A DNA stretch of 38,725 nt, from the sequence record PZ502562.2, one strand, 5' to 3'. This DNA comes from a phage. Numbering within the stretch: the first letter of the stretch is position 1; every line of letters begins with the position of its first letter. The notes below the pieces were generated by a model that was not told where the DNA came from, did not search any database, and was given only the letters and a program-made list of their open reading frames with translations. Of this stretch, positions 5,638-35,277 are shown in pieces. A program made the translations under genes and the position numbers.

Positions 5638-5712
5638 CCTTAAGGTTTAACTTTAAGACCATTAAGTGTTAATTAAAGATTTAAATTAAAGACTACTAAT
5701 AGAGGACTTTAA
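5638..5712 (+). other. AT-rich region downstream of phi1.1A/B; probable primary origin of DNA replication
   Basis: TAAGGTTTAACTTTAAGACCATTAAGTGTTAATTAAAGATTTAAATTAAAGACTACTAATAG lies just after the paired promoters, where the T7 primary origin maps. Confidence 0.5.
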
Positions 5713-5714
5713 GT

Positions 5715-5843
5715 ATGCGTAACTTCGAAAAGATGATCAAACGTTCTAAACATAACGCTCATGACTTCGAGGCAACCAAGGGTCGCAAGTTGAATAAGAC
5801 TAAGCGCGACAGTTCGCATAAGCGTAGCTGGGAGGGTCAGTAA
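5715..5843 (+). CDS. 1.1: Gene 1.1 protein (42 aa, basic)
   Basis: MRNFEKMIKRSKHNAHDFEATKGRKLNKTKRDSSHKRSWEGQ; stop is 1 nt before the gene 1.2 ATG. Confidence 0.8.
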   Translation: MRNFEKMIKRSKHNAHDFEATKGRKLNKTKRDSSHKRSWEGQ

Positions 5844-5844
5844 G

Positions 5845-6117
5845 ATGGGACGTTTATACAGTGGCAACTTAATAGCATACAAAGACGCTATCGAGAGACT
5901 TAAAGAAGACTATGATGCAAATGTGGTCGTTGAAACTTATCGCTATGAGGACTTCGAACAGCGACGGATGGTTGCCGGTGAGACACTTCGAGTGATATTG
6001 CGGGATGGCTTAATGCTGACCGCTAAGTGTTTCGAGCAGTCAGATGAAGACGTTCGCTGTAATGCACAGACCGAATGGCTCCGTAAGGTACACAGTGACC
6101 TACAGCACTGGAAGTAA
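5845..6117 (+). CDS. 1.2: Gp1.2-like protein (host dGTPase inhibitor in T7); divergent central region
   Basis: 90 aa; N-terminus MGRLYSGNL and C-terminus ...DEDV...W...DLQHWK match T7 gp1.2, the middle does not. Confidence 0.8.
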   Translation: MGRLYSGNLIAYKDAIERLKEDYDANVVVETYRYEDFEQRRMVAGETLRVILRDGLMLTAKCFEQSDEDVRCNAQTEWLRKVHSDLQHWK

Positions 6118-6137
6118 TACGACTCACTAAAGGGACA
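6115..6137 (+). promoter_or_regulatory. T7-RNAP promoter phi1.3
   Basis: TAATACGACTCACTAAAGGGACA, +1 G at 6132. Confidence 0.85.
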
Positions 6138-6170
6138 ATGCTTAAGGTCGCTCATTGAGTGGCCTTAGTC
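6136..6170 (+). promoter_or_regulatory. Putative RNase III site (R1.3-like)
   Basis: CTTAAGGTCGCTCATTGAGTGGCCTTAGTC hairpin. Confidence 0.4.
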
Positions 6171-6195
6171 ATTTAACCGATAGGAGATAAACATT

Positions 6196-7218
6196 ATGAT
6201 GAACATTAAGACCAACCCATTTAAAGCCGTGTCTTTCGTAGAGTCTTCCATTAAGAAAGCTCTGGATAACGCTGGGTATCTTATCGCTGACATCAAGTAC
6301 GATGGTGTACGTGGGAACATCTGCGTAGACAATACCGCTAACAGTTGCTGGCTCTCTCGTGTATCTAAAACGATTCCGGCACTGGAGCACCTAAACGGAT
6401 TCGATGCACGCTGGAAGCGTCTTCTGAATGATGACCGTTGCTTCTACAAAGATGGCTTTATGCTGGATGGGGAACTAATGGTCAAGGGAGTAGACTTCAA
6501 CACTGGGTCTGGCCTACTGCGCACCAAATGGACCGACACTAAGAACCAAGAGTTCCACGAAGAGTTATTCGTTGAGCCAGTACGTAAGAAAGACAAGGTT
6601 CCCTTTAAGTTACACACTGGACATCTGTGCGTCAAACTGTATGCAATCCTCCCGCTTCACGTTGTAGAGTCTGGAGAAGACTGTGACATCATGACGCTAC
6701 TCATGCAGGAACACGTTAAGAACATGCTGCCTCTGCTACAGGAATACTTCCCTGAAATCGAATGGCAAGCGGCTGAATCTTACGAGGTCTACGACATGGT
6801 AGAACTACAGCAACTGTATGAGAAGAAGCGTGAAGAAGGTCATGAGGGTCTCATTGTAAAAGACCCAATGGGAATCTATAAGCGAGGCAAGAAGTCCGGC
6901 TGGTTCAAAATGAAGCCAGAGAACGAGGCTGACGGCATTATCCAAGGTCTGGTATGGGGTACAGAGGGTCTGGCTAACGAAGGCAAAGTGATTGGCTTTG
7001 AGGTGCTTCTTGAGAGTGGTCGTGTAGTAAACGCCACAAACATCTCTCGCGCCTTAATGGACGAGTTCACCAATACCGTAAACATTGAAGGCCGTGACTT
7101 CTACAATGGACACGCTTGCCAGATTAGCTACATGGAGGAAACACCAGACGGCTCTCTGCGTCACCCATCGTTCGTAATGTTCCGTGGCACAGAGGACAAC
7201 CCTCAAGAGAAAATTTAA
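6196..7218 (+). CDS. 1.3: ATP-dependent DNA ligase
   Basis: 340 aa; adenylation motif KYDGVRG; collinear with T7 ligase apart from a roughly 19-aa internal deletion near the C-terminus. Confidence 0.95.
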   Translation: MMNIKTNPFKAVSFVESSIKKALDNAGYLIADIKYDGVRGNICVDNTANSCWLSRVSKTIPALEHLNGFDARWKRLLNDDRCFYKDGFMLDGELMVKGVDFNTGSGLLRTKWTDTKNQEFHEELFVEPVRKKDKVPFKLHTGHLCVKLYAILPLHVVESGEDCDIMTLLMQEHVKNMLPLLQEYFPEIEWQAAESYEVYDMVELQQLYEKKREEGHEGLIVKDPMGIYKRGKKSGWFKMKPENEADGIIQGLVWGTEGLANEGKVIGFEVLLESGRVVNATNISRALMDEFTNTVNIEGRDFYNGHACQISYMEETPDGSLRHPSFVMFRGTEDNPQEKI

Positions 7219-7403: not shown

Positions 7404-7664
7404 ATGTTTCGACTTCATTTCAACAAAAGCATTAAGAATTTCACAGTTCGCCGTGCTGACCGTTCAATCGTATGTGCGAGCGAGCGCCGAGCTAAGTTAC
7501 CTCCTATTGGTGACACAGTCCCCTTGGCACCGAGCGTCCACATCATTATCACTCGTGGTGACTTCGAGAAAGCAATAGACAAGAAACGTCCGGTTCTTAG
7601 CGTGGCAGTGACCCGCTTCCCGTTCGTCCGTCTGTTACTCAAACGAATCAAGGAGGTGTTCTGA
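7404..7664 (+). CDS. 1.6: Gene 1.6 protein
   Basis: 86 aa, [33 protein letters not shown]..., near-identical to T7 gp1.6. Confidence 0.9.
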
Positions 7665-8198
7665 TGATTGTTGTACTTAATGGCCCCGCTGGTTGCGGAA
7701 AGGATACAATAGCTAACCGTATTCTTGAGGTATCCAGTGTATTCAAGAAGGCCGAGATGAAAGCTCCTATGTGGGAAATAGCTAATGCGACTTTGGGTAG
7801 TAACTTCGAGAAGTTCGTAGAGCTATACAACGACAGGGCTACCAAAGAGAAACCTTGCGATATGTTGGGTGGACTTTCACCACGCAACTTCTTTATTCAT
7901 ATCTCTGAGAAGTGGTGTAAGCCTCTATTCGGAGACACTTACTTTGGAGAGCGTATGCTGCAAACAGCCATCTCCAACAAACATCACGAAACCATTCTGT
8001 CAGATGGTGGTTTCTCTGTGGAACTGATGCCAGCACTTGCCGCTGGGGAGACAATTATGTTGGTTCGTTTACATCGTGAGGGTTATACGTTCGATGGAGA
8101 TAGTCGGTCGTACATACACATCGAGCACAAGAACTGCTGGCCTCTGGATGTGAAACTAGAAGATGGTAAAATTGACGAAGCCGTTGAGGGGATTTTAG

Positions 8199-8526
<328 letters not shown>

Positions 8527-10262: not shown

Positions 10263-11981
<1,719 letters not shown>

Positions 11982-12045
11982 TGTGAACCCATATGGACAC
12001 AGACCGGACGATTCGTGTCTGTGCTCCTATTGTGTATTCAGAAAT

Positions 12046-12068
12046 CAATATAACTCACTAAAAGGAGA
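12046..12068 (+). promoter_or_regulatory. T7-RNAP promoter phi4.3-like
   Basis: CAATATAACTCACTAAAAGGAGA, 18/23 match to consensus, 7 nt upstream of the gene 4.3 ATG. Confidence 0.5.
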
Positions 12069-12074
12069 CACATC

Positions 12075-12287
12075 ATGTTCAAACTGATTAAGAAATTAGG
12101 CCAACTGCTGGTCCGTATGTACAACATGGAAGCCAAGCGTCTGAACGATGAGGCTCGTAAAGAGTCCACTCAGTCACGCGCTCTGGCTATTCGAGCCAAC
12201 GAACTGGCTGACAGTGCATCCAATAAGGTTACAGAAGCTGCCCGTGTAGCCAACCAAGCCCAGCAACTTTCCAAATTCTTTGAGTAA
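12075..12287 (+). CDS. 4.3: Gene 4.3 protein
   Basis: 70 aa, MFKLIKKLGQLLVRMYNMEAKRLNDEARKE..., collinear with T7 gp4.3. Confidence 0.9.
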   Translation: MFKLIKKLGQLLVRMYNMEAKRLNDEARKESTQSRALAIRANELADSASNKVTEAARVANQAQQLSKFFE

Positions 12288-17893: not shown

Positions 17894-18205
17894 ATGGGTA
17901 AGAAAATTAAGAAGGCCGTGAAGAAAGTCACTAAGTCCGTTAAGAAAGTCGTTAAAGAAGTGGCTCGTCCGGTTAAACAGGTTGCTGGTGGCATTGCCGG
18001 TCTTGCTGGTGGTGCTGGTGAAGCACAGGTAGTGGAAGTGCCACAAGCTGCTGCAACTCCAGCTGCACAGATTGTTGACGTACCTGAGAAAGAGGTTTCC
18101 ACTGAGGATGAAGCACAGACCGAAAGCGGACGTAAGAAAGCCCGTGCTGGTGGTAAGAAGTCCTTGAGCGTGGCTCGCAGCTCCGGTGGCGGCATCAACA
18201 TTTAA
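17894..18205 (+). CDS. 7.3: Gene 7.3 tail-associated protein
   Basis: 103 aa, Lys-rich N-terminus MGKKIKKAVKKVTKSVKKVVKEVARPVKQ..., collinear with T7 gp7.3. Confidence 0.9.
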   Translation: MGKKIKKAVKKVTKSVKKVVKEVARPVKQVAGGIAGLAGGAGEAQVVEVPQAAATPAAQIVDVPEKEVSTEDEAQTESGRKKARAGGKKSLSVARSSGGGINI

Positions 18206-18219
18206 GCAGGAGGTGACAC

Positions 18220-19830
18220 ATGGCTGAGAAGCGTACAGGTCTAGCCGAGGAAGGAGCAAAGTCGGTCTATGAGCGATTGAAGAACGACCGTGCACCCTAT
18301 GAGACTCGCGCCCAAAACTGCGCTCAGTACACCATTCCGTCCCTCTTCCCTAAGGATTCCGATAACTCATCCACAGACTACACAACTCCGTGGCAAGCTG
18401 TTGGTGCTCGCGGTCTCAATAACTTGGCCTCTAAGCTCATGCTGGCTCTCTTCCCGATGCAAACGTGGATGAAACTGACCATCTCTGAATATGAGGCCAA
18501 ACAGTTACTGAACGACCCCGATGGACTCGCTAAGGTCGATGAGGGTCTCTCGATGGTAGAGCGTATCATCATGAACTACATTGAGTCTAACAGCTACCGA
18601 GTGACACTCTTTGAGGCGCTCAAGCAGTTAGTCGTAGCTGGGAACGTCCTACTGTACCTACCGGAACCAGAAGGGTCGAACTATAACCCCATGAAGCTGT
18701 ACCGATTGTCTTCTTATGTGGTCCAAAGAGACGCATTCGGCAACGTTCTGCAAATGGTGACTCGTGACCAGATAGCTTTTGGTGCTCTCCCTGAGGACAT
18801 CCGTAAGGCTGTAGAAGGTCAAGGCGGTGAGAAGAAACCTGATGAGACCATCGACGTGTACACTCACATCTATCTGGATGAGGACAAAGGTGAATACCTC
18901 CGGTACGAAGAGGTTGAAGGTATGGAGGTACAAGGCTCCGATGGGTCTTACCCTAAAGAGGCTTGCCCGTACATCCCGATTCGGATGGTTCGACTGGACG
19001 GCGAATCCTATGGTCGTTCGTACATTGAGGAATACTTAGGTGACTTACGGTCCCTTGAGAATCTCCAAGAGGCCATCGTTAAGATGTCAATGATTAGCTC
19101 TAAGGTTATCGGCTTAGTGAACCCTGCTGGCATCACCCAGCCACGCCGACTGACCAAAGCTCAGACTGGTGACTTCGTTACTGGTCGTCCAGAAGACATC
19201 TCGTTCCTCCAACTGGAGAAGCAAGCAGACTTTACCGTAGCCAAGGCTGTCAGTGACGCTATTGAGGCTCGCCTTTCGTTTGCCTTTATGTTGAACTCTG
19301 CGGTTCAGCGCACAGGTGAACGTGTGACCGCCGAAGAGATTCGGTACGTAGCTTCTGAACTTGAAGATACTTTAGGTGGTGTCTACTCCATCCTTTCTCA
19401 AGAATTACAATTGCCTCTGGTACGAGTGCTCTTGAAGCAACTACAAGCCACGCAACAGATTCCTGAGTTACCTAAGGAAGCCGTAGAGCCAACCATTAGT
19501 ACAGGTCTGGAAGCAATCGGTCGAGGACAAGACCTTGATAAGCTGGAGCGGTGTGTCACTGCGTGGGCTGCACTGGCGCCTATGCGCGATGACCCTGACA
19601 TCAACCTTGCAATTATTAAGTTGCGCATTGCGAACGCTATCGGTATTGACACTTCTGGTATTCTTCTCACCGAAGAACAGAAGCAACAGAAGATGGCTCA
19701 ACAGGCTATGCAAATGGGTATGGATAATGGTGCTGCGGCGCTAGGTCAAGGTATGGCTGCACAGGCTACAGCTTCACCTGAGGCTATGGCTGCTGCCGCT
19801 GATTCCGTAGGTTTACAGCCGGGCATTTAA
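18220..19830 (+). CDS. 8: Portal (head-to-tail connector) protein
   Basis: 536 aa, near-identical to T7 gp8. Confidence 0.98.
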   Translation: MAEKRTGLAEEGAKSVYERLKNDRAPYETRAQNCAQYTIPSLFPKDSDNSSTDYTTPWQAVGARGLNNLASKLMLALFPMQTWMKLTISEYEAKQLLNDPDGLAKVDEGLSMVERIIMNYIESNSYRVTLFEALKQLVVAGNVLLYLPEPEGSNYNPMKLYRLSSYVVQRDAFGNVLQMVTRDQIAFGALPEDIRKAVEGQGGEKKPDETIDVYTHIYLDEDKGEYLRYEEVEGMEVQGSDGSYPKEACPYIPIRMVRLDGESYGRSYIEEYLGDLRSLENLQEAIVKMSMISSKVIGLVNPAGITQPRRLTKAQTGDFVTGRPEDISFLQLEKQADFTVAKAVSDAIEARLSFAFMLNSAVQRTGERVTAEEIRYVASELEDTLGGVYSILSQELQLPLVRVLLKQLQATQQIPELPKEAVEPTISTGLEAIGRGQDLDKLERCVTAWAALAPMRDDPDINLAIIKLRIANAIGIDTSGILLTEEQKQQKMAQQAMQMGMDNGAAALGQGMAAQATASPEAMAAAADSVGLQPGI

Positions 19831-22806: not shown

Positions 22807-25191
22807 ATGGCACTCATTAGCCAATCAATCAAGAACTTGAAGGGTGGTATCAGTCAACAGCCTGACATCCTTCGTTATCCAGACCAAGGGTCACGCCAAG
22901 TTAACGGTTGGTCTTCGGAGACCGAGGGCCTCCAAAAGCGTCCACCTCTGGTCTTCTTAAAGACCCTTGGAGACAGCGGTGCGTTAGGCCAAGCTCCGTA
23001 CATCCACCTGATTAACCGTGATGAGAACGAACAGTATTACGCTGTGTTCACTGGTAGTGGAATCAGAGTGTTCGACCTTGCTGGTAACGAGAAGCAAGTT
23101 AGGTATCCTAACGGTTCCAACTACATCAAGACAGCTCAGCCACGTAACGACCTGCGGATGGTTACTGTAGCAGACTATACGTTCATCGTTAACCGTAACG
23201 TTGTTGTACAGAAGAACCAAAATTCTGTCAACTTACCGAATTACAACCCTAAGCAAGACGGATTGATTAACGTTCGTGGTGGTCAGTATGGTAGGGAACT
23301 AATTGTACACATTAACGGTAAAGACGTTGCGAAGTATAAAATCCCAGATGGTAGTCAACCTGCACACGTAAATAATACGGATGCCCAATGGTTAGCCGAA
23401 GAGTTAGCCAAGCAGATGCGCACTAACTTATCTGGTTGGACTGTAAGTGTAGGGCAAGGGTTCATCCATGTAACCGCACCAAGCGGTCAACAGATTAACT
23501 CCTTCACGACTAAAGATGGCTACGCAGACCAGTTGATTAACCCTGTTACCCACTACGCTCAGTCGTTCTCTAAGTTACCACCTAATGCTCCTAACGGCTA
23601 CATGGTTAAAATCGTAGGGGACGCCTCTAAGTCTGCCGACCAGTATTACGTTAAGTATGACGCTGAGCGGAAAGTTTGGGCTGAGACTTTAGGTTGGAAC
23701 ACTGAGAACCAAGTTCTATGGGAAACCATGCCACACGCTCTTGTGCGAGCCGCTGACGGGAATTTCGACTTCAAGTGGCTTGAGTGGTCTCCTAAGTCTT
23801 GTGGTGACGTTGACACTAACCCTTGGCCTTCTTTTGTTGGCTCAAGTATCAACGATGTGTTCTTCTTCCGTAACCGCTTAGGATTACTTAGTGGGGAGAA
23901 CATCATATTGAGTCGTACAGCCAAATACTTCAACTTCTACCCTGCGTCCATTGCTAACCTTAGTGATGACGATCCTATAGACGTAGCTGTGAGTACCAAC
24001 CGAATAGCAATCCTTAAGTACGCCGTTCCGTTCTCAGAAGAGTTACTCATCTGGTCCGATGAAGCACAATTCGTACTGACTGCTTCTGGAACTCTCACGG
24101 CTAGGTCGGTTGAGTTGAACCTAACGACTCAGTTTGATGTGCAGGACCAAGCGAGACCTTATGGGATTGGGCGTAACGTCTACTTTGCCAGTCCGAGGTC
24201 CAGCTACACGTCCATCCACAGATACTACGCCGTGCAGGATGTCAGTTCCGTTAAGAACGCTGAGGACATTACAGCACATGTTCCTAACTACATCCCTAAT
24301 GGTGTGTTCAGCATTTGCGGTAGTGGCACTGAAAACTTCTGTTCGGTACTATCTCATGGGGACCCAAGCAAAATCTTCATGTACAAATTCCTGTACCTGA
24401 ATGAAGAGTTACGACAACAGTCGTGGTCACATTGGGACTTTGGGGAAAACGTGCAGGTTCTAGCTTGTCAGAGTATAAGCTCCGATATGTATGTGATTCT
24501 TCGCAATGAGTTCAATACGTTCCTAGCTAGAATCTCTTTCACTAAGAACGCCATTGACTTACAAGGTGAGCCTTATCGTGCCTTTATGGACATGAAGATT
24601 CGCTACACGATTCCTAGTGGAACATACAACGATGATATATTCACTACCGCTATCCATATTCCTACTATTTATGGTGCAAACTTCGGTAGGGGCAAAATCA
24701 CTGTATTGGAGCCTGACGGTAAGATAACAGTATTCGAGCAACCTACGGCTGGATGGCAAAGTGACCCTTGGCTGAGACTCAACGGTAACTTAGAGGGACG
24801 CATGGTGTACATTGGGTTCAACATTAACTTCGTCTATGAGTTCTCTAAGTTTCTCATCAAGCAGACTGCCGACGATGGGTCAACCTCAACGGAAGACATT
24901 GGTCGCTTGCAGTTACGCCGAGCGTGGGTTAACTATGAGGAGTCTGGTACGTTTGACATTTATGTTGAGAACCAATCATCCAACTGGAAGTATACGATGG
25001 CTGGTGCTCGCTTAGGCTCTAACACTCTGAGGGCTGGGCGATTGAACTTAGGGACAGGACAATACCGATTCCCTGTGGTTGGTAACGCCAAGTTCAATAC
25101 AGTGTCTATCTTGTCAGATGAGACTACCCCGCTGAACATCATTGGTTGTGGCTGGGAAGGTAACTACTTACGGAGAAGTTCCGGTATTTAA
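22807..25191 (+). CDS. 12: Tail tubular protein B
   Basis: 794 aa, near-identical to T7 gp12. Confidence 0.98.
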   Translation: MALISQSIKNLKGGISQQPDILRYPDQGSRQVNGWSSETEGLQKRPPLVFLKTLGDSGALGQAPYIHLINRDENEQYYAVFTGSGIRVFDLAGNEKQVRYPNGSNYIKTAQPRNDLRMVTVADYTFIVNRNVVVQKNQNSVNLPNYNPKQDGLINVRGGQYGRELIVHINGKDVAKYKIPDGSQPAHVNNTDAQWLAEELAKQMRTNLSGWTVSVGQGFIHVTAPSGQQINSFTTKDGYADQLINPVTHYAQSFSKLPPNAPNGYMVKIVGDASKSADQYYVKYDAERKVWAETLGWNTENQVLWETMPHALVRAADGNFDFKWLEWSPKSCGDVDTNPWPSFVGSSINDVFFFRNRLGLLSGENIILSRTAKYFNFYPASIANLSDDDPIDVAVSTNRIAILKYAVPFSEELLIWSDEAQFVLTASGTLTARSVELNLTTQFDVQDQARPYGIGRNVYFASPRSSYTSIHRYYAVQDVSSVKNAEDITAHVPNYIPNGVFSICGSGTENFCSVLSHGDPSKIFMYKFLYLNEELRQQSWSHWDFGENVQVLACQSISSDMYVILRNEFNTFLARISFTKNAIDLQGEPYRAFMDMKIRYTIPSGTYNDDIFTTAIHIPTIYGANFGRGKITVLEPDGKITVFEQPTAGWQSDPWLRLNGNLEGRMVYIGFNINFVYEFSKFLIKQTADDGSTSTEDIGRLQLRRAWVNYEESGTFDIYVENQSSNWKYTMAGARLGSNTLRAGRLNLGTGQYRFPVVGNAKFNTVSILSDETTPLNIIGCGWEGNYLRRSSGI

Positions 25192-25692: not shown

Positions 25693-26283
25693 ATGTGTTG
25701 GGCAGCCGCAATTCCTATCGCTATAGCTGGCGCTCAGGCTATCAGTGGTCAGAACGCTCAGGCCAAAATGATTGCCGCTCAGACCGCTGCTGGTCGTCGT
25801 CAAGCTATGGAAATCATGAAGCAGACGAACATTCAGAATGCTGACCTATCGTTGCAAGCTCGAAGTAAACTTGAGGAAGCGTCCGCTGAGTTGACCTCGC
25901 AGAACATGCAGAAGGTCCAAGCTATGGGGTCTATCCGAGCGGCTATCGGAGAAAGTATGCTTGAAGGTTCCTCAATGGACCGAATTAAGCGAGTCACAGA
26001 AGGGCAGTTCATTCGGGAAGCAAATATGGTAACTGAGAACTACCGCCGTGACTACCAAGCTATCTTCGCACAGCAACTTGGTGGCACTCAGAGTTCTGCA
26101 AGCCAGATTGACGAAATCTATAAGGGCGAACAGAAACAGAAGAGTAAGCTACAGATGGTTCTGGACCCACTGGCTATCATGGGGTCTTCCGCTGCGAGTG
26201 CTTACGCATCCGGTGCGTTCGACTCCAAGCCCACAACTAAGGCACCTATTGTTGCCGCTAAAGGAACCAAGACGGGGAGGTAA
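25693..26283 (+). CDS. 14: Internal core protein gp14
   Basis: 196 aa, near-identical to T7 gp14. Confidence 0.96.
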   Translation: MCWAAAIPIAIAGAQAISGQNAQAKMIAAQTAAGRRQAMEIMKQTNIQNADLSLQARSKLEEASAELTSQNMQKVQAMGSIRAAIGESMLEGSSMDRIKRVTEGQFIREANMVTENYRRDYQAIFAQQLGGTQSSASQIDEIYKGEQKQKSKLQMVLDPLAIMGSSAASAYASGAFDSKPTTKAPIVAAKGTKTGR

Positions 26284-26289
26284 TGAACT

Positions 26290-28551
26290 ATGAGTAAGAT
26301 TGAATCTGCCCTCCAAGCGGTACAACCGGGACTCTCTCGGTTACGTGGTGGGACTGGTGGTATGGGCTATCGTGCAGCAACCACTCAGGCTGAGCAACCA
26401 AAGTCAAGTCTATTGGACACCATTGGTCGGTTCGCTAAGGCTGGTGCTGATATGTACGCCGCTAAGGAGCAACGAGCACGAGACCTAGCCGATGAGCGCT
26501 CAAACGAGATTATCCGTAAGCTGACTCCTGAGCAACGCCGAGAGGCTCTCAACAAAGGAACACTTCTGTATCAGGATGACCCATACGCTATGGAAGCACT
26601 GCGAGTCAAGACTGGTCGTAACGCCGCGTACCTTGTGGACGATGACGTTATGCAGAAGATTAAAGAGGGTAAATTCCGTACTCGTGAAGCGATGGAAGAG
26701 TATCGTCATAGTCGTCTTCAAGAGGGCGCTAAGTCATACGCTGAGCAGTTCGGTATCGACCCTGATGACGTTGACTATCAGCGTGGTTTCAATGGGGATA
26801 TTACTGAGCGTAACATCTCACTGTATGGGGCACATGATAGCTTCTTGAGCCAGCAAGCTCAGAAGGGTGCAATCATGAACAGCCGAGTGGAACTCAACGG
26901 TGTCCTTCAAGACCCTGACATGCTTCGCCGCCCAGACTCTGCTGACTTCTTTGAGAAGTACATCGACAATGGTCTGGTCACTGGGGCAATCCCATCTGAC
27001 GCTCAAGCCACACAGCTTATAAGCCAAGCGTTCAGTGACGCTTCTAGCCGTGCTGGTGGTGCTGACTTCCTGATGCGGGTTGGTGACAAGAAGGTAACAC
27101 TTAACGGTGCCACTACTACCTATAAGGAACTTATGGGCGAAGAGCAGTGGAATGCCCTTATGGTGACAGCCCAGAGAGCACAATACGACAACGATGCGAA
27201 ACTGAACGAGAAGTTTCAACTAGATGTCAACTCTGCGTTGTTCGTAGACGACCCTCGTGTTGGTTGGGAGAAGCTCCAAGGAATCAAGGCTGAGCTAGAT
27301 AAATACCAGCCGGGAGAGCAGATGACCCCTCAACGCGCCACGCTTATAGAGGCCCAGAAGCAACTAAGAGCCAAGATGGTAGAGTGGGCCAAGAACGAGG
27401 CCAAAGCACTTGATGAGGCTCAGAAGGCCGATAATAAGTTTAGGGTTATTGACGCTCAGTATCAGAAGCGAATCAACGGAGAGTGGGTCTCTACGGACTT
27501 TAAGGACATGCCTACAAACGATAACACTGGGGAGTTCAAGCATAGCGACATTGTAAACTACGCTAACAAGAAGCTGGCAGACATAGACGCTATGGACATC
27601 CCAGATGGAGCAAAAGATAGACTCAAACTACAGTACCTGCAATCAGACTCTAAGGACGGGCCTTTCAGGACTGCCATAGGAACGATGGTTCAAGATGCGG
27701 CTCAGGAGTGGTCTTCTTCTGTGATGAACGGTAAGTTAGCAGATAAGACTCCAGCGATGGATGCCTTACGTAGAATCCGTAACGCAGACCCATACCTAAT
27801 AGCGGCACTGTACCCTGAGCAGGCTGAGCTATTCTTGACGATGGACTTAGCTGACCGACAGGGTGTTGATGTGCAGGAGTTGATTGATGCTGAACGTCAG
27901 ATTGCTACACGTTCTAAGGAGCAACGATTCGAAGATGATATAGCCTTTGAGAAATCACTTAATGACTCTAAAGTTCCAGAGATAGCTAATATGCCGACAG
28001 AACTACGGGGGCTTGCTCGTAAGATTTATGACTCGGTTAAGTACCGCACCAACAACGTTGACATGGCTATGACCGAGATGCAGAAGCTCCTTAAGGAGTC
28101 CACTACTACCTTTAACGATGATAGCCCAGACAACGAGGGAGTCATTGGGGTAATTCCGAGGAACTATCTACAGGTAAACGATGACCCTAAATCTTGGAAG
28201 CAAGGTAAGGATATTATCGACGCTGCCCTTAAAGGAATCATAGCGGCTAACCCAAGTATGGCCTCTGATAAGATGACCGTATCGGTAATCGGGAAGTCTA
28301 TCTACATCATGCCAACTACGGGGACTGGTCCACGGGTTCGTTACGACAAGGAGATGTTGTCCAAGGTCTGGAAGGAAACACAAGAGCGTCTCGCAACGGA
28401 AGCCGTTGAGAAGGCCCGTGATAAAGCTATGGCTGATGCCAACAAGCGAGCACCTATAGTCGCCGCTAAGAAAGCTCGTGAGGCTGGCGCTAAACGAGTC
28501 CGAGATAAACGTAAACAGACTCCGAAGTTCATCTATGGACGCAAGGAGTAA
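26290..28551 (+). CDS. 15: Internal core protein gp15
   Basis: 753 aa; N- and C-terminal thirds match T7 gp15 closely, the centre is more divergent. Confidence 0.96.
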   Translation: MSKIESALQAVQPGLSRLRGGTGGMGYRAATTQAEQPKSSLLDTIGRFAKAGADMYAAKEQRARDLADERSNEIIRKLTPEQRREALNKGTLLYQDDPYAMEALRVKTGRNAAYLVDDDVMQKIKEGKFRTREAMEEYRHSRLQEGAKSYAEQFGIDPDDVDYQRGFNGDITERNISLYGAHDSFLSQQAQKGAIMNSRVELNGVLQDPDMLRRPDSADFFEKYIDNGLVTGAIPSDAQATQLISQAFSDASSRAGGADFLMRVGDKKVTLNGATTTYKELMGEEQWNALMVTAQRAQYDNDAKLNEKFQLDVNSALFVDDPRVGWEKLQGIKAELDKYQPGEQMTPQRATLIEAQKQLRAKMVEWAKNEAKALDEAQKADNKFRVIDAQYQKRINGEWVSTDFKDMPTNDNTGEFKHSDIVNYANKKLADIDAMDIPDGAKDRLKLQYLQSDSKDGPFRTAIGTMVQDAAQEWSSSVMNGKLADKTPAMDALRRIRNADPYLIAALYPEQAELFLTMDLADRQGVDVQELIDAERQIATRSKEQRFEDDIAFEKSLNDSKVPEIANMPTELRGLARKIYDSVKYRTNNVDMAMTEMQKLLKESTTTFNDDSPDNEGVIGVIPRNYLQVNDDPKSWKQGKDIIDAALKGIIAANPSMASDKMTVSVIGKSIYIMPTTGTGPRVRYDKEMLSKVWKETQERLATEAVEKARDKAMADANKRAPIVAAKKAREAGAKRVRDKRKQTPKFIYGRKE

Positions 28552-28577
28552 CTAAAGGCTACATAAGGAGGCCCTAA

Positions 28578-31500
28578 ATGGATAAGTACGATAAGAACGT
28601 ACCAAGTGAGTATGATGGTCTGTTCCAGAAGGCGGCTGATGCCAACGGGGTCTCTTATGACCTTTTACGTAAAGTCGCTTGGACAGAATCACGGTTTCAA
28701 CCCACAGCCAAGTCCAAGACTGGACCATTAGGCATGATGCAGTTCACCAAGGCAACAGCTAAGGCTATGGGACTTAATGTAACCGATGGGCCTGATGATG
28801 ACCGACTGGTTCCAGAGTTGTCTATCAACGCTGCTGCCAGACATCTTGCTGAGTTGGTGAATAAATTCGACGGAGATGAACTTAAGGCTGCACTTGCATA
28901 TAACCAAGGTGAGGGGAGACTAGGCGCTCCCCAGCTTGAGGCATACTCTAAGGGTGACTTCTCAGCTATCTCCGACGAGGGTCGCAACTACATGCGAAAC
29001 CTCATGGATGTGGCTAAGTCTCCAATGGCTGGACAGTTGGAAGCGTTCGGAGGCATTACCCCAAAGGGTAAAGGCATCCCTTCTGATGTTGGTTTAGGAG
29101 ACATTAAGGTCGAAGGGAAGCGTAAAGTAACAGATGCTATCCCAGAGTCAACTGGATTGGACATTAAAGGTATCGAACAGGAGGCTCCGGCGAAATCATT
29201 CGCTACGGACTTTTGGGACCATCATAAACAGAAACCATCTGAGTATGACGACCGCTCAACATTCTTCGGATTCAAAGATGCTGCAAGTGCCGAAATTGAC
29301 AACTCAGTCCTCGGCATGGCCTTCCGTGCTGGTCGCCTCGATAATAGTTTTGATGTGTTTAAGGATGTTATCACGCCTACGCGTTGGAACTCTACTATCT
29401 GGACTCCTGAGGAACTAGAGAGGATTCGAACAGAAGTTAAGAACCCAGCGTATCTAAATGTTGTTACAGGCGGTTCCCCTGAGAACCTTGACGACCTAAT
29501 TAGATTAGCCAACGAGAACTATGAGAATGACCTAAAGAAAGCTGACGCAGGTATCGGGGCACAGCTTTCCGCTGGCATTGTTGGTGCGGCATTCGACCCA
29601 CTATCGTATGTTCCGTTGGTTGGTGTGACAGGTAAGGGCTTTAAGTTAATCAATAAGGCTCTTGTGGTAGGTGCTGAGAGTGCAGCCATTAACATGGCCT
29701 CAGAAGGGTTGCGAACGTCTATAGTTGGTGGAGACGCTAATTATACTGGCGCGGTACTAGGTGGTCTTGTGTTTGGGGCAGGAATGTCTGCAATCAGTGA
29801 CGCTATAACCGCTGGGTTGAGACGTAGCAAACCTGAGGCTGAGTTCAACAACGAGTTCGTCGGGCCGTTGATGCGTATGGAAGCTCGCGAGACTGCCTTT
29901 AACGCTAACTCTGAGGACTTGTCTAAGATGAGCACAGGCAGCATCAACTTCGACAGAGAGTACGGTGGGGTTAACTACGCACCATTGGATACCGAGCCGG
30001 GTGCAGTTGTCCTCCCTCAAGGTCAAATCCTCAGCGACACTAACCCACTGAACCCTCAGACCCTCAGTGAGTTTGAGGCGATAAATCCTGAACGTGCAGC
30101 AAGAGGTATCTCCTTAGGTGGGTTCACTGAGATTGGCCTTAAGACACTGCGCTCTGAGAACACGGGAGTTCGCTCCATTGCTCGTGACCTAGTGCGCTCT
30201 CCAACTGGTATGGAATCGGGGTCTAACGGTAAGTTCGGCTCGACCGCTGATGATATTCATAGTCGGCTATCATCCAACGATAACCGCGATTGGAACCTAT
30301 ACTATGATAAGATGCGGGAAGTCATGAAAGACCCTGAGTTCACAACAGGTGCGCCTAAGATGAGCAAAGCAGAGGCCGTTGAGTCCATCGACCGCAAAAT
30401 TGCGCTGGCAATAGAGCACCCTGAGTTACAGGTAAACTTGTCTCCCAAAGAGATGGACCTGATGCGCCACGTTAAGGGTCACTACGACCTCAAGCGTGAA
30501 CTTATGGAAAACCCTGCTGTGTTCGGCAATCCAAAGGCGGTTAGCATCTTCCCCGGCAGTCGCAACAAAGGCACATACATTCCGAGAGTATATGACACCC
30601 AATCGAAGAATTTATATATTCAACGTTTGGGGAGCCGAGAGGCTTTACAGGAGGCTATCGCTGAAAGTTCGCTTGCGTCATACTACCTGCGTCCAGAAGT
30701 TAAGGCGCGTATTGATGAGCACCTGATGGAAGTCAATGGACTCAAGTCAACTAAAGAAGTAACACATGAAATGGTTCGAAAGTATGCGATGGATAAGGCT
30801 TACGGTATATCCCATACAGACCAATTCTCGTCGTCTTCTATTGTTGATGAGAACATCACGGGGCTTGTCGGCATCGAGAACAATAACTTTCTGGAAGCAC
30901 GTAACCTCTTTGACACCGATGTGCCAACCACGTTACCGGATGGCTCTACGTTTTCAGTAGATGACATTCGCGTGTTCAGCCAGCGCATCCTTATGCCAGC
31001 ATATGACCGTCGTGTAAATGGTGATATTGCTATCATTGGTAGCTCTGGTAAAACTACCAAGGAACTCAAGGATGAGATTATGGTACTGAGTAAGCAGGCC
31101 GAAGGTAACGGGAAGTTGAAGGGAGAAGTAGAAGCTCTCAAGGATACCGTGAAGATTCTAACTGGTCGCGCCCGTCGCAGCCCAGAAGGTGCTTTAGGGA
31201 CAGCTTTACGCTCTCTGAACGACATGACGTTCTTTGCTAAGAACTTCTATATGCCTCTCCAGAACTTCACGGAGATTGCCGGTATGCTAGTCAAAGGTAA
31301 TGTCTCTGCTGTGACTCACGGAATCCCTGTGATTAACGATTGGGTTAACCGAAGTAAACCAATGCGAGCCTCTGAGATTAAAGAACTCCACAGTATGGTG
31401 TTCGGTAAGGAACTTGACCAGCTAATCCGTCCGAGTCGCGAAGACCACATTAGCAGACTTAGGGAGTCTACAGACACCAACGCTGTGTTGGCTAATGTAG

Positions 31501-32552
31501 TTGGTACTCTTCGTTTCGGTACTCAGGAGTTAGCGGCTCGTTCCCCGTGGACGGTTATGCTAAATGGCACCACTAACTACATCATTGACGCTGCCCGTCA
31601 AGGTGTCCTTGGTGATATTGCAAGTGCGGTATTATCAGGGACTGGTGCTAAGTTTGGTAAGGCAAATTATCTTAAGTCTGCATCAATAAGTCCTGAGCAG
31701 TGGAATGGTATCAAGCAACTATTTCGAGACCACGCCACTCGTGATTCTGGAGGTAAGTTCACAATCAGGGACAAAAGAGCGTTCACCTATGACCCTCGCA
31801 CAATGGACCTGTGGAGACTTGCTGACAAAGTTGCAGGTGAGACAATCATGCGACCGCACAAGATTTCCTCACAGGACTCAGTTGCGTATGGGGCAGGCGT
31901 TAAGATGGTGATGCAGTTTAAGAACTTCGTCATTAAGTCTCTTAACGCCAGATTCGTGCGTAGCTTCTATGAGGCCACAAAGAACAACCGTGCGTTAGAC
32001 CAAGCGTTAACACACATTGTTGCCTGTGGACTAGCTGGTGGCTACTACGTTGGGCAGGCGCATCTAAAGGCCGCTTCCTTACAGGATGACAAACGTAAGG
32101 AGTACCTAAAGATGGCACTAGACCCGAAGATGATTGCCCATGCATCCATCTCTCGTAGCTCACATTTAGGTTCGCCACTTAGCATCTACGATATGATCGC
32201 TGGGGTGTTTGGTGATGACACCTATAAGTACACACGCTCCACGGTACTACCGAAGCAACCAGAAGAACGCGATCGCACAAAAGCGGTCACAGGTCGTCAG
32301 GTTACTGGTATGATTAGTGGTGCTTTAGGCGAGCAGATTCCTGCTTTAGGGTTCGCAGGGCAGGTTGGAGGTACGGCACTTAATGCTGTATCACTACTGA
32401 AAGCGCCCAACAAGGCTACCGAGATGGAGTTCCGTACAGGGATGTTTAATACAATGCGTGAGATTGTTCCGAACGACCCTATCACGCAGCAACTCATTAT
32501 GAAAATTTATGAGGCCAATGGTATCCACATCAAGGAGACACCTAGGAAATAA
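28578..32552 (+). CDS. 16: Internal core protein gp16 with N-terminal lytic transglycosylase domain
   Basis: 1324 aa; N-terminal SLT motif ...VAWTESRFQPTAKSKTGPLGMMQFT...; collinear with T7 gp16. Confidence 0.98.
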   Translation: MDKYDKNVPSEYDGLFQKAADANGVSYDLLRKVAWTESRFQPTAKSKTGPLGMMQFTKATAKAMGLNVTDGPDDDRLVPELSINAAARHLAELVNKFDGDELKAALAYNQGEGRLGAPQLEAYSKGDFSAISDEGRNYMRNLMDVAKSPMAGQLEAFGGITPKGKGIPSDVGLGDIKVEGKRKVTDAIPESTGLDIKGIEQEAPAKSFATDFWDHHKQKPSEYDDRSTFFGFKDAASAEIDNSVLGMAFRAGRLDNSFDVFKDVITPTRWNSTIWTPEELERIRTEVKNPAYLNVVTGGSPENLDDLIRLANENYENDLKKADAGIGAQLSAGIVGAAFDPLSYVPLVGVTGKGFKLINKALVVGAESAAINMASEGLRTSIVGGDANYTGAVLGGLVFGAGMSAISDAITAGLRRSKPEAEFNNEFVGPLMRMEARETAFNANSEDLSKMSTGSINFDREYGGVNYAPLDTEPGAVVLPQGQILSDTNPLNPQTLSEFEAINPERAARGISLGGFTEIGLKTLRSENTGVRSIARDLVRSPTGMESGSNGKFGSTADDIHSRLSSNDNRDWNLYYDKMREVMKDPEFTTGAPKMSKAEAVESIDRKIALAIEHPELQVNLSPKEMDLMRHVKGHYDLKRELMENPAVFGNPKAVSIFPGSRNKGTYIPRVYDTQSKNLYIQRLGSREALQEAIAESSLASYYLRPEVKARIDEHLMEVNGLKSTKEVTHEMVRKYAMDKAYGISHTDQFSSSSIVDENITGLVGIENNNFLEARNLFDTDVPTTLPDGSTFSVDDIRVFSQRILMPAYDRRVNGDIAIIGSSGKTTKELKDEIMVLSKQAEGNGKLKGEVEALKDTVKILTGRARRSPEGALGTALRSLNDMTFFAKNFYMPLQNFTEIAGMLVKGNVSAVTHGIPVINDWVNRSKPMRASEIKELHSMVFGKELDQLIRPSREDHISRLRESTDTNAVLANVVGTLRFGTQELAARSPWTVMLNGTTNYIIDAARQGVLGDIASAVLSGTGAKFGKANYLKSASISPEQWNGIKQLFRDHATRDSGGKFTIRDKRAFTYDPRTMDLWRLADKVAGETIMRPHKISSQDSVAYGAGVKMVMQFKNFVIKSLNARFVRSFYEATKNNRALDQALTHIVACGLAGGYYVGQAHLKAASLQDDKRKEYLKMALDPKMIAHASISRSSHLGSPLSIYDMIAGVFGDDTYKYTRSTVLPKQPEERDRTKAVTGRQVTGMISGALGEQIPALGFAGQVGGTALNAVSLLKAPNKATEMEFRTGMFNTMREIVPNDPITQQLIMKIYEANGIHIKETPRK

Positions 32553-32624: not shown

Positions 32625-34466
32625 ATGGCTAACGTAATTAAAACCGTTTTGACTTACCAGTTAGATGGCTCCACTCATGATTTTAATATCCCGTTTGAGT
32701 ATCTAGCCCGTAAGTTCGTAGTGGTGACTCTTATTGGTGTAGACCGTAAGGTCCTTACGCTTAATACAGACTATCGCTTTGCTACACGTACTACCATCTC
32801 ACTGACTAAGGCTTGGGGTCCATCCGATGGCTACACGACCATCGAGTTACGCCGAGTAACCTCCACGACCGACCGCTTGGTTGACTTTACGGACGGCTCA
32901 ATCCTCCGTGCGTATGACCTTAACGTTGCTCAGATTCAAACGATGCACGTAGCGGAGGAGGCGCGCGACCTGACTGCTGATACAATCGGTGTCAATAATG
33001 ACGGTCACTTGGATGCCCGTGGTCGGCGTGTAGTGAACGTTGGTAATGCGGTAGACCGCGGGGATGCGGTTAACTTGGGGATGCTTCAAGATTGGGACAA
33101 CTCCGCCCTGAATCAAGCAGACCGTTCGGAGAAGGAGGCTGATAGGGCAGAGGCCGCTGCGTCCCAAGCTGACAGTAGCGCTGCTAAGGCTCTTTCTTCT
33201 GAGAAAAGTGCTTCCACAAGTGCTACTAACGCACTCGCTTCGGAGAATGCAGCAAAGGCATCACAAGTGGCTGCGGCTGGTAGCGCAAGTTCGTCAGAAC
33301 AATCTAAGAACGAGGCAAATGCCTACAAAGAGGCCGCGCAAACTGCCGCGGACACCGCGTCCAACCATGAGGATAAAGCCAAGGAGTACATGGAGAGGGC
33401 CGAGGCTGTCGCCTGCTCCAAGGAGAATCCGGTATCTGAGATAACGTTCACTACTGGTGGGTCATTAGGTTCTGAAAGGGCCAAGGTCCGGGACACAGTT
33501 ACCAACCGCATCTACTACTGGATTGGGACCTTCCCCAAGGTAATACCTGAAAACTCCGTAGGAGAAGACCTTATAAAGGCAGATGGTGACCTGTGGGATT
33601 CTCTGCAAAACCCTAACGGTAAGTGGGTAGACGCGGGTAACAGCGTCCCTGCACTAAGAACCACATTAGGAGAAGGAGTACCCTTCAAGTACGAGACGTA
33701 CCCGAAGGATAACCTCAACGCCATTACTGAGCGTCAATCCAATAGGGTGCGTGTGGCTACGTGGAACATTTGGGGAGCAGGTGCTCAAGGTAACTTTGGT
33801 TCACTGGGTTCTGCCGATAGGATAAAGGCCCTACAGGAGCGATGGCTCAACCAAAAGCTAGACTACGTAGGTCTACAGGAGTGCTATTTCAACGACACAT
33901 TCTACCCATTCTCCATGTATACAATAGGTTCTCTCCACACTGCATTCGTACAGACGTGCGAACCTTATGAGTCTGGAATAACCATCCTGGATTTCGACTA
34001 CGGTACGGGATGTGTAAGCAGTGGCGCTGACGTGAAGATGTCTGGAGGAATCTATAAGGACAGCATCGGAAGCTCAGTGGATAAGGAGCGCCGAGCGTGG
34101 ACTCGCACAGAGACTACCATTAGGGGCCGTAAGTACGTAATATACAATACACATCTCAGCTATGATAGGGCGCGATTCACTCAGCAGCAGTCAGAGTTGA
34201 ACAACCTCCTATTAGCAGAGACTAACCCACAAGTAATCGTAATGGGAGATTTCAACCACGACGACATCACGTTGTTTCAGCCATTACTTGATGCCGGATG
34301 GTCTATGGGCCAGAACAAAGAGTTTAATACTAACAACACCGGCGGAAAATGGCACATTGATAATATACTGTACAAAGGGTTCTCTAAGAGAGTTGATAGA
34401 GGAACTCAGGACGCACCAAGTTCTCTATCTGACCATAAATTATTCTATGTGGAACTGGAGGTATAA
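32625..34466 (+). CDS. 17: Chimeric tail fibre: T7-like tail-attachment N-terminus, Ala/Ser-rich shaft, C-terminal EEP (endonuclease/exonuclease/phosphatase)-fold domain
   Basis: 613 aa. Residues 1 to about 150 match T7 gp17; the rest is unrelated to the T7 shaft and tip. C-terminal motifs in EEP order: VATWNIWG, DYVGLQECY, VIYNTHLSYD, VIVMGDFNHDD, SDHKLFYVE. Confidence 0.9.
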   Translation: MANVIKTVLTYQLDGSTHDFNIPFEYLARKFVVVTLIGVDRKVLTLNTDYRFATRTTISLTKAWGPSDGYTTIELRRVTSTTDRLVDFTDGSILRAYDLNVAQIQTMHVAEEARDLTADTIGVNNDGHLDARGRRVVNVGNAVDRGDAVNLGMLQDWDNSALNQADRSEKEADRAEAAASQADSSAAKALSSEKSASTSATNALASENAAKASQVAAAGSASSSEQSKNEANAYKEAAQTAADTASNHEDKAKEYMERAEAVACSKENPVSEITFTTGGSLGSERAKVRDTVTNRIYYWIGTFPKVIPENSVGEDLIKADGDLWDSLQNPNGKWVDAGNSVPALRTTLGEGVPFKYETYPKDNLNAITERQSNRVRVATWNIWGAGAQGNFGSLGSADRIKALQERWLNQKLDYVGLQECYFNDTFYPFSMYTIGSLHTAFVQTCEPYESGITILDFDYGTGCVSSGADVKMSGGIYKDSIGSSVDKERRAWTRTETTIRGRKYVIYNTHLSYDRARFTQQQSELNNLLLAETNPQVIVMGDFNHDDITLFQPLLDAGWSMGQNKEFNTNNTGGKWHIDNILYKGFSKRVDRGTQDAPSSLSDHKLFYVELEV

Positions 34467-34467
34467 C

Positions 34468-35277
34468 ATGACCAACAAACTACTAGTAAACACTGAGGTA
34501 GCTCTCGCGGATGGGGACGCTCTATCCCTAGAGATGGTTCGTATGCGAAACGAACTGACAATCGCTAAGGCGGTTCAGGGTGAGACCCATTTCTACAAGA
34601 GTGTTAAGGATATGGGCATTACCGGGAAGGTTACGCTACTCTCCATTGCGAAGAGGATGCGCCGACGCTCTGTCCTCATCGTGAGTGTGTACGGAGGGAC
34701 CAGTGATGGTCCTGACCTTCCGCTCCCTTACTTCAACTCAGGGACTCCTGTTTATATGTCCGGCATACTTTGGGCGTACAAGATGGAGGATGAGAAAAAA
34801 GTCTATTTCGAGTGGCGTAACGAGAACATGACTGCCCGGTGTAACTATAACGCACACGTTGAGGACAAGGTTACTCCGTGGGTGTTCGATATGCTACCTA
34901 AGATGAATGCTACGGCTGGTCCGGGATACTGGCAGAACAGGATGTCAAATATTTGGGTTCCGGGGACGTATTACTTCACTAGAGACCAGATGAACGGCTT
35001 CACCGATAGACCTGTACTTGGAGGGGGCTACTTGGAGGTAATGAATGCAGGTAACTCACCTACTTCTGACAGAAACTATGTATTCACCTTAAACACTTCG
35101 GACCAACACAAGTGGTCCCGTCAAAATGATGGGGATTGGAGAATCATCCCTGTGTGCTTCACCGCAGCCGTACATGACAGCCAGATGCGCGTGGGTGATA
35201 TGAAAGTGGCAAGCAATGGTATGCTCCATATCAGAGTAAGCTCCAGTAAAGTGGGCCAGATTGCCACCGTTGGATAA
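34468..35277 (+). CDS. Hypothetical 269-aa protein downstream of the tail fibre; no counterpart in T7
   Basis: ATG 34468 lies 1 nt after the gene 17 TAA, with RBS GGAGG at 34457-34461. The ORF track shows a longer version from 34288 overlapping gene 17. Aromatic/Asn/Gly-rich, no signal peptide, no recognisable catalytic motif. Confidence 0.75.
   Translation: MTNKLLVNTEVALADGDALSLEMVRMRNELTIAKAVQGETHFYKSVKDMGITGKVTLLSIAKRMRRRSVLIVSVYGGTSDGPDLPLPYFNSGTPVYMSGILWAYKMEDEKKVYFEWRNENMTARCNYNAHVEDKVTPWVFDMLPKMNATAGPGYWQNRMSNIWVPGTYYFTRDQMNGFTDRPVLGGGYLEVMNAGNSPTSDRNYVFTLNTSDQHKWSRQNDGDWRIIPVCFTAAVHDSQMRVGDMKVASNGMLHIRVSSSKVGQIATVG

Follow-up and report, generated by a model that had tools for sequence, protein, structure and literature searches.

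How did a phage otherwise so close to T7 come by a gene 15 whose C-terminal domain looks as though it belongs to a different phage? This is the question posed by the window, by which we mean the whole 38,725-nucleotide stretch of phage DNA analyzed here (sequence record PZ502562.2). With a backbone ~91 to 92% identical to that of T7, the window is, on sequence, a Teseptimavirus. The features that bear on the question are collected in Table 1.

Table 1. Features of the gene 14 to gene 16 region of the window.
Feature	Coordinates	Strand	Description
Gene 14	25693..26283	+	ORF; synteny with T7 gene 14; gp14, ejectosome outer-membrane pore
Gene 15	26290..28551	+	Intact ORF, 753 aa; gp15, internal virion protein C, periplasmic tunnel protein
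Gene 15, codons 1–275	26290..27114	+	Bulk of the N-terminal part (which extends to T7 residue 303); common to both allele classes
Gene 15, codons 276–717	27115..28440	+	Divergent block, B-type gp15 C-terminal domain; limits from maximum chi-square scan and site-by-site alignment
Conserved island	28441..28697	+	Last 37 codons of gene 15 (basic C-terminal tail), 26-nt spacer, first 40 codons of gene 16
Gene 16	28578..32552	+	ORF, 1324 aa; gp16, internal virion protein D, N-terminal lytic transglycosylase domain
T7-divergent part of gene 16	28698..32552	+	Codon 41 to stop; limits from alignment
gp16 "molecular tape" segment	29046..29267 (approximate)	+	T7 gp16 residues 157–228

That the gene is a true gene 15 follows from comparison with T7. 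All 753 residues of its product match residues 1 to 747 of T7 gp15 (phmmer against the PDB: 7EYB, 7K5C, and 6YSZ; E = 0, 1300 bits), the full length of the T7 protein, and a global alignment of the two has six inserted residues without a frameshift. A Pfam search gave no family match for gp15 (0 hits), so its membership relies on the PDB sequence homology. The gene order 14-15-16 is syntenic with T7, and gene 15 is flanked by gene 14 and by a gene 16 with an SLT domain (PF01464, residues 15–127 of gp16, E = 4.8e-29; T7 gp16 has 1318 residues). Gene 14 is mostly 90 to 98% identical in nucleotide sequence to T7 and 10 other relatives, with some alignment windows down to 85%; it is conserved in all relatives and lies outside the swapped module described below. 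By homology, gp15 and gp16 are expected to serve as a periplasmic DNA tunnel as they do in T7. In the T7 proteins, residues 304 to 704 of gp15 swing about a hinge at residues 305 to 306 and are stabilized by gp16 (PMC8954989). It is the tape, residues 157 to 228 of gp16, that binds the gp15 C-terminal domain and "cements" gp15 interfaces (PMC8954989; bioRxiv 10.1101/2021.01.04.424714), and when gp16 is missing the gp15 C-terminal half is disordered (bioRxiv 10.1101/2021.01.04.424714). The same two-part architecture, a hinge and a gp16-dependent C-terminal domain, is predicted for the window's gp15 from its collinear homology with T7.

The first-pass annotation had suspected that the center of gp15 (27100–28400) was more divergent than its ends. 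It was right. A two-breakpoint maximum chi-square scan of nucleotide differences from T7 delimits a block in which 417 of 1308 nucleotides differ (31.9%), against 72 of 933 (7.7%) in the rest of the gene; the chi-square value is 186.4, and the maximum reached in 100 site shuffles is 17.8. Third codon positions alone put the block at 27117..28425, and sliding-window identity against T7 and relatives, run for each record, is likewise not uniform along gp15. At the protein level, identity to T7 is ~96% over residues 1 to 295, 67.6% over residues 296 to 715, and 89.5% over the last 38 residues. The block corresponds to the T7 gp15 C-terminal domain, although it fits the domain boundary only approximately, the DNA breakpoint at codon 276 being ~28 codons upstream of the hinge.

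Synonymous sites tell us how old this difference is. Codons 1 to 250 are 92.3% identical to T7 in nucleotides and 96% in amino acids (pS 0.27), and are about as close to Bas102-type phages as to T7. Codons 296 to 715 are 68.1% identical to T7 in nucleotides, with pS saturated at 0.73, and 94.8% identical to Bas102; over codons 716 to 753, pS against T7 returns to 0.32. Throughout the gene, dN/dS against T7 stays at 0.07 to 0.11. A jump in pS from 0.27 to 0.73 with dN/dS near 0.1 means that the ancestry of the block is much older and that constraint on it is not relaxed. This indicates different ancestry for the block, not accelerated protein evolution.

The block belongs to a small and sharply bounded class. 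Among 50,697 phage records searched with tblastn, 13 carry a gp15 C-terminal domain (gp15-C) at least 90% identical to that of the window, and the next best match is 68.3%; two truncated HZP2 records also match. IMG/VR has the same gap. Neither intermediates (68–90%) nor a donor lineage for gp15-C appeared in the 50,697 phage records, IMG/VR, or metagenome contigs, and the scan of the metagenome contigs found T7-type loci only, at 67 to 68%. We call the T7-type domain, present in ~180 records, A-type and that of the 13 records B-type. Between the two types of gp15, identity is ~95% for the N part and 68% for the C domain. Accordingly, a tree of the N part leaves the classes unseparated (94–97% identity between them), whereas the C-domain tree splits them deeply. 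Residues 1 to 303 are 94 to 97% identical among most of the Teseptimaviruses tested (Yep9, ~90%), and all B-type phages switch at nearly one place, 27117–27150. The window's gene 15 block is 91 to 95% identical in nucleotides to those of the Teseptimaviruses Bas102, Bas104, Yanou, vB_Yep_15, WW2, and EG1; for the same six phages and WX1, identity over the divergent block is mostly 88 to 100%, with lower subsegments in some. As an aside, Yersinia enterocolitica was the isolation host for 5 of the 11 distinct B-type phages, a hint of a host link that tests nothing.

Divergence does not end with gene 15. It pauses at the island spanning the gene 15/16 junction, which is 86 to 96% identical to T7 and all relatives, then resumes at 28698 and runs to the stop codon of gene 16, an extension absent from the first-pass annotation. 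The whole divergent region, 27115–32552, thus covers 5.4 kb: gp15-C and all but the start of gp16, interrupted by the island, which is a plausible crossover site. In every 50-codon bin of gene 16 from codon 51 on, pS against T7 is 0.5 to 0.9 and amino acid identity 42 to 90%; TMH II of gp16 is ~51% identical to that of T7. Against Bas102-type phages, most of the gene 16 part is 85 to 100% identical in nucleotides, with some of these phages falling to 44 to 82% at 28700–29500. Each of the divergent subsegments of gene 16 shows a separate affiliation.

One segment of gp16 keeps company with gp15-C. The window's tape is 63.5% identical in amino acids to T7, 100% to Bas102, and 86.5% to C5, and a tblastn search with 29028–29297 found it at 83% identity or more in exactly the 13 records with B-type gp15-C (next best, 68.9%). 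C5 combines a B-type gp15-C (89.7%) and B-type tape with a gp16 C-terminal part nearer to T7 (79% to T7, 60% to the window). In Bas102, Bas104, and Yanou, a T7-type transglycosylase segment (28698–28940) lies between B-type gp15-C and B-type tape. Hence gp15-C and the tape cosegregate, although both the transglycosylase segment between them and the C-terminal part of gp16 reassort on their own. The sample is small, 11 distinct phages and the window, and relatedness among these phages means that the counts do not represent independent events. Taking cosegregation together with the T7 structures, the best reading is that gp15-C and the gp16 tape form a coadapted module.

Codon usage adds a little. 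The center of gp15 had been noted as richer in AGA, AGG, and ATA codons, and so it is, modestly: 14 of 441 codons in the block against 2 of 312 in the flanks (Fisher p = 0.019), or 31.7 per 1000 against a genome background of 13.4 (binomial p = 0.003). The T7 equivalent of the block has 4 in 435 (9.2 per 1000), and most of the block's rare codons are also present in relatives with the same allele. GC content does not shift in the gene 15 block, and gene 16 is not enriched in the three codons (15.9 per 1000). The bias is real yet a poor independent sign of foreign origin.

What, then, is the history of the region? We think it very probable that the window is a T7-like backbone carrying a minority, B-type allele of a two-protein ejectosome module, made up of gp15-C and of gp16 from codon 41 on, and that this allele spread by homologous recombination, the resulting chimeras being viable. 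The recombinant patch in the injection apparatus proposed by the first-pass annotation therefore survives in substance, through the jump in pS, the discrete classes, and the conflict of affiliations, but not in extent, which goes beyond gene 15. That conflict is clearest in the center of gene 12, where the window is 92 to 97% identical to T7 and EG1 and only 10 to 80% identical to the Bas102 group and ESh6; among 12 genomes, all four combinations of gene 12 center and gp15-C are found. The B-type allele would have moved in mixed infections, with crossovers where the two classes share conserved sequence. The left crossover would lie at about codon 276 of gene 15, immediately 3′ of a stretch that is almost the same in every phage; the right one may lie in the junction island or where gene 16 ends. 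The N-terminal part of gp15, for which contact with the conserved gp14 pore has been proposed in the literature, would stay put, and the C-terminal domain would travel with the gp16 segment it must fit. Chimeras would survive because the left boundary falls just upstream of the gp15 hinge. Repeated exchange is one possibility; a single ancient event, with vertical descent and homogenization of the flanks thereafter, is equally likely.

Could the C-terminal domain simply evolve faster, through weaker constraint or diversifying selection and with no recombination at all? The block is, after all, the flexible, refolding half of gp15, and rapid divergence of gp15-like proteins has been reported (PMC8954989). 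We regard this as very improbable. Synonymous sites are saturated in the block while dN/dS is equal across the gene, which rules out relaxed constraint, and in comparisons across genera the C domain is at least as well conserved as the N part (63–67% and 62–69% identity, respectively, for T7 against other genera). A fast clock also fits poorly with a block 95% identical to Bas102 when the backbones of the window and Bas102 are each at least as close to T7 as to one another, with a bimodal distribution of identities that is empty between 68% and 90%, or with the conflicting affiliations of gene 12 and gp15-C. Still less credible, to the point of being negligible, is an assembly chimera of two cocultured T7-like phages. 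Such phages often cross-contaminate, and mixed lysates can give a chimeric consensus. Yet the same junction architecture (gp15 of 753 residues, gp16 of 1324, and the shared switch point) recurs in at least 11 independent isolates from Switzerland, Latvia, and China, as well as in one IMG/VR contig, and both ORFs are intact. The window also differs by 4 to 10% from every relative across the block and so was not copied from a known contaminant.

More deserving of thought, though still improbable, is the reverse history, in which B-type gp15-C/gp16 is ancestral to the backbone and it was the T7 lineage and most Teseptimaviruses that acquired the A-type. Since the searches turned up no donor lineage, the transfer may have been into the T7 lineage. 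In its C domain, the A-type is nearer to other genera (63–67%) than is the B-type, which is 56 to 58% identical to the Berlinvirus, Przondovirus, and Teetrevirus versions, as would fit exchange between genera. Moreover, T3, a Teetrevirus, has an A-type C domain 97.5% identical to that of T7, so the A-type is demonstrably mobile. Against this stand the large majority held by the A-type (~180 records to 13), which is not decisive, and the codon shift seen in the B-type and not in the T7 A-type, which mildly favors B as the foreign allele but is not decisive either. Somewhat less doubtful, but unlikely all the same, is that A and B are two anciently diverged types of ejectosome, roughly a genus apart, both kept by selection within one genus. 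The selective cause might be adaptation to cell envelopes that differ, or escape from blocks that the host or a prophage imposes on ejection proteins. Were this so, gp15-C and the gp16 tape would be an obligate, coinherited unit.

Movement of the B-type allele between related phages by recombination, our preferred reading, is ordinary phage mosaicism, and exchange of ejectosome genes is already documented in T3. It does mean that T7-like phages are mosaic in their injection proteins as well as in their tail fibers, and that whole-genome identity masks this mosaicism. A recombination unit that starts near a structural boundary and keeps gp15-C with the tape amounts to a natural-variation test of the published model of ejectosome assembly. 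For those engineering a T7 chassis or swapping its structural genes, gp15-C and gp16 should probably be moved together. Finally, a rare B-type module without a known source implies that an unsampled Studiervirinae lineage probably exists.

The closest precedent is T3, for which a recombinant origin was reportedly proposed by Pajunen et al. in 2002. T3 acquired Teseptimavirus-type gp15 and gp16 by recombination (Sxt1 paper, PMC11680406), an instance of Studiervirinae lineages trading ejectosome genes 15-16(-17). There, as here, genes for internal virion proteins have been homologously replaced, trees of gp15 and gp16 conflict with that of the genome, and one crossover falls within gene 15, near codon 50 in T3 and at codon 276 in the window. 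The window differs in that its left crossover spares the N-terminal part of gp15, in that the exchange is between allele classes of one genus, with no donor found in the databases searched, and in its finer structure, gp15-C and tape staying together through reassortment of the transglycosylase segment and of the C-terminal part of gp16. Set beside the gp15:gp16 tunnel of T7 (7K5C, 6YSZ/6YT5, and 7EYB), the window shares full-length gp15 homology, an SLT domain in gp16, and gene order, but its C-terminal domain is ~67% identical and six residues longer, and its allele class is known from sequence. The last comparison lies within the same genome. The first-pass annotation had likened the center of gp15 to the distal part of gene 17, and the two do share a sharp boundary after a conserved N-terminal part and a similar enrichment in AGA, AGG, and ATA (38.9 per 1000 codons in distal gene 17). 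The likeness ends there: distal gene 17 is a nonhomologous replacement, with an Exo_endo_phos domain and no nucleotide match in 11 relatives, whereas the patch in gp15 is another allele of one domain, homologous and collinear.

The genome is that of a T7-like phage. Its first 25 kb are 90–92% identical to T7, ESh6, CICC 80001, and many further Teseptimaviruses, genes 13–17 are collinear with those of T7, and its gp15 is a full-length match to Protein Data Bank chains of T7 gp15 (7EYB, 7K5C, and 6YSZ; E = 0). The first-pass annotation had suspected that the center of gp15, at 27100–28400, diverges from T7 more than the ends do and could be a recombinant patch in the injection apparatus. It was right about the divergence and essentially right about the coordinates. 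In the protein alignment, identity to T7 is ~96% over residues 1–295, 67.6% over residues 296–715 (with three small insertions), and 89.5% over the final 38 residues. A two-breakpoint maximum chi-square scan of the nucleotides against T7 places the block at 27115..28440 (chi2 = 186; the highest value among 100 site shuffles was 17.8), with 31.9% differences within the block versus 7.7% in the rest of gene 15; restricted to third codon positions, the scan returns 27117..28425. The DNA switches at codon 276, slightly upstream of the first amino acid divergence at residue 296–300, which lies close to the boundary between the N part of gp15 and its C-terminal domain (gp15-C, T7 residues 304–704).

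Genes and domains of the ejection and tail-fiber region, with amino acid identity between the window and T7
Feature	Position	Strand	Length or product	Identity to T7
Gene 15	26290..28551	+	753 aa (T7 gp15, 747 aa)	
gp15 95–303	T7 residues 95–303			94.7%
gp15 304–704	T7 residues 304–704			67.1%
Gene 16	28578..32552		1324 aa; SLT transglycosylase domain at N terminus	
gp16 transglycosylase domain	T7 residues 1–156			89.7%
gp16 tape	T7 residues 157–228			63.5%
gp16 TMH I	T7 residues 243–410			83.3%
gp16-C	T7 residues 411–1118			63.3%
gp16 TMH II	T7 residues 1119–1290			51.2%
Gene 17	32625–34466		Tail fiber gp17, 613 aa	
Extra ORF, between gene 17 and holin gene	34468–35277		269 aa	

The patch reaches beyond gene 15, into gene 16. 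We computed identity along the genome in 200-nt windows, record by record, against T7, ESh6, and other relatives. Gene 15 is far from uniform in this profile: identity to T7 and ESh6 is ~92–94% up to roughly 27000 versus 18–76% at ~27000–28400. It stands at 86–95% across 28400–28700 (the 3' end of gene 15 and the 5' end of gene 16), is mostly 0–82% over the remainder of gene 16, and is back to 90–97% in the 5' part of gene 17. In the alignment, dense differences from T7 restart at 28698 and run to the gene 16 stop at 32552, and pS against T7 is 0.5–0.9 in each 50-codon bin of gene 16 from codon 51 on. Elsewhere, 5701–6200, 7501–8400, 11801–12200, and 18101–18400 are <80% identical to all five of T7, ESh6, Bas102, Yanou, and EG1; variable small genes or indels probably account for these.

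That the gp15 block is a recombinant patch is supported by a jump in synonymous divergence, by the class structure of gp15-C, and by incongruence between gp15-C and gene 12. Against T7, pS in gene 15 is 0.27 over codons 1–250, 0.73 (saturated) over codons 296–715, and 0.32 over codons 716–753, and dN/dS is 0.07–0.11 in every segment; the block therefore split from its T7 counterpart much earlier than the flanks split from theirs, and it is under equal purifying selection. An intrinsically faster C domain is ruled out by comparison with other genera (Berlinvirus BA14, a Przondovirus, and Teetrevirus AP5), to which T7 is 62–69% identical in the N part and 63–67% in the C domain; to the window, it is 95% and 68% identical, respectively. 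Nor is the block an assembly chimera, the same architecture being shared by one IMG/VR contig and at least 11 phages from separate isolations. Within the block, the window is 91–95% identical in nucleotides to Bas102, Bas104, Yanou, vB_Yep_15, WW2, and EG1 and 89% to WX1. Among 12 genomes, gene 12 type and gp15-C type are found in all four possible pairings. Gene 12, also structural, has an allelic patch of its own in its center (23000–23900), where the window is 90–97% identical to T7 and EG1 but only 10–80% to ESh6, Bas102, Bas104, Yanou, vB_Yep_15, WW2, C5, and vB_Yep_9, a grouping opposite to that at gp15-C. Just upstream of the main breakpoint, at 26868–27090 in the N-terminal part of gene 15, lies a small mosaic segment: a distinctive set of clustered substitutions unites EG1, C5, and vB_Yep_9; the majority of them are probably synonymous, and neither the window nor T7 nor the Bas102 group has them.

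gp15-C exists as two discrete allele classes, the T7-type (A-type) and the rarer class of the window (B-type). A tblastn search of phage records with gp15-C returned 13 at 90.5–97% identity, plus two truncated HZP2 records; the next best was 68.3%, followed by ~180 T7-type records at 60–68%. IMG/VR matches showed the same gap (98, 95, 95, and 91%, then 68%), and a scan of metagenome contigs for B-type gp15-C found none, only T7-type loci. Compared with its counterparts in other genera, the B-type C domain reaches 56–58% identity, so none of them can be singled out as the donor. Codon usage mildly marks the domain as foreign: the enrichment in AGA/AGG/ATA codons reported earlier for the center of gp15 is weakly borne out (14/441 codons in the block versus 2/312 in the flanks, Fisher p = 0.019; against a genome background of 13.4 per 1000, binomial p = 0.003). 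The T7 counterpart of the block has 4/435, most of the block's such codons are common to relatives with the same allele, and its GC content is that of its surroundings.

The likeness that had been drawn to the distal part of gene 17 is superficial only, that region being a non-homologous replacement with an Exo_endo_phos domain. Residues 1–155 of gp17 are the T7 N-terminal domain (PF03906), and residues 378–604 an Endonuclease/Exonuclease/phosphatase (EEP) domain (PF03372; E = 2.9e-12, 47 bits, cutoff 24.5). From ~33000 on, gene 17 has no nucleotide match among 11 Teseptimavirus relatives, and an enzymatic EEP tip looks unusual for a T7-type fiber. The extra ORF that follows matches neither any Pfam family nor, at the nucleotide level, the relatives examined; it may be a fiber accessory or assembly protein that goes with the novel gp17 tip.

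In T7, gp15 residues 95–303 are rigid and residues 304–704 rotate about a hinge at 305–306, stabilized by gp16 (PMC8954989), in whose absence gp15 is disordered over its C-terminal half (bioRxiv 10.1101/2021.01.04.424714). The gp16 tape, the segment that binds gp15-C, follows its class: in tblastn, tape identity is at least 83% in exactly the 13 B-type gp15-C records, and the next best is 68.9%. C5 has a B-type gp15-C (89.7%) and a B-type tape (86.5%), and the C-terminal part of its gp16 is nearer T7 (79% to T7 versus 60% to the window). In Bas102, Bas104, and Yanou, the transglycosylase segment (28698–28940) is T7-type, although the gp15-C before it and the tape after it are B-type. Because these parts of gp16 reassort, the linkage is more than physical proximity. 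Such co-segregation, in few and related phages, is what co-adaptation of contacting segments would predict. The transglycosylase segment itself has two subtypes, differing mostly at synonymous sites, and the window has that of vB_Yep_15, WW2, WX1, and EG1. At 29101–29400, the window is 98–100% identical to Bas102, versus ~94% in the surrounding sequence, and just 44–85% to the EG1/Yep15 group, which suggests recent fine-scale exchange within gene 16 among B-type phages.

We infer that the patch arose by homologous recombination during mixed infections, with crossovers in sequence common to both classes. Candidate sites would be the nearly invariant stretch just before 27115, the conserved island at 28441–28697, and the region beyond the end of gene 16. 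On the left, B-type phages switch at slightly different points (27117 in the window, about 27150 in Bas102), which suggests more than one crossover near that site. Chimeras would stay viable because the N part of gp15, for which contact with the conserved gp14 has been proposed in the literature, remains with the backbone, the C domain presumably traveling together with gp16.

The patch is a further instance of the published exchange of ejectosome genes in Studiervirinae. We did not find its near-domain-boundary breakpoint or the linkage of gp15-C to the tape stated in the literature on ejection proteins and this exchange. The ejection proteins have been termed "mosaically conserved" in a review (PMC8954989), and according to the Sxt1 study, a Teseptimavirus was the source of the gp15 and gp16 that T3 carries (PMC11680406). 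The C domain of T3 is A-type, with 97.5% identity to that of T7, the A-type being demonstrably the class exchanged between genera. The first ~50 codons of T3 gene 15 resemble AP5 (92–93% in nucleotides) and later codons T7 (88–99%), so that its junction, at ~codon 50, also falls inside the gene but at a different site from that in the window.
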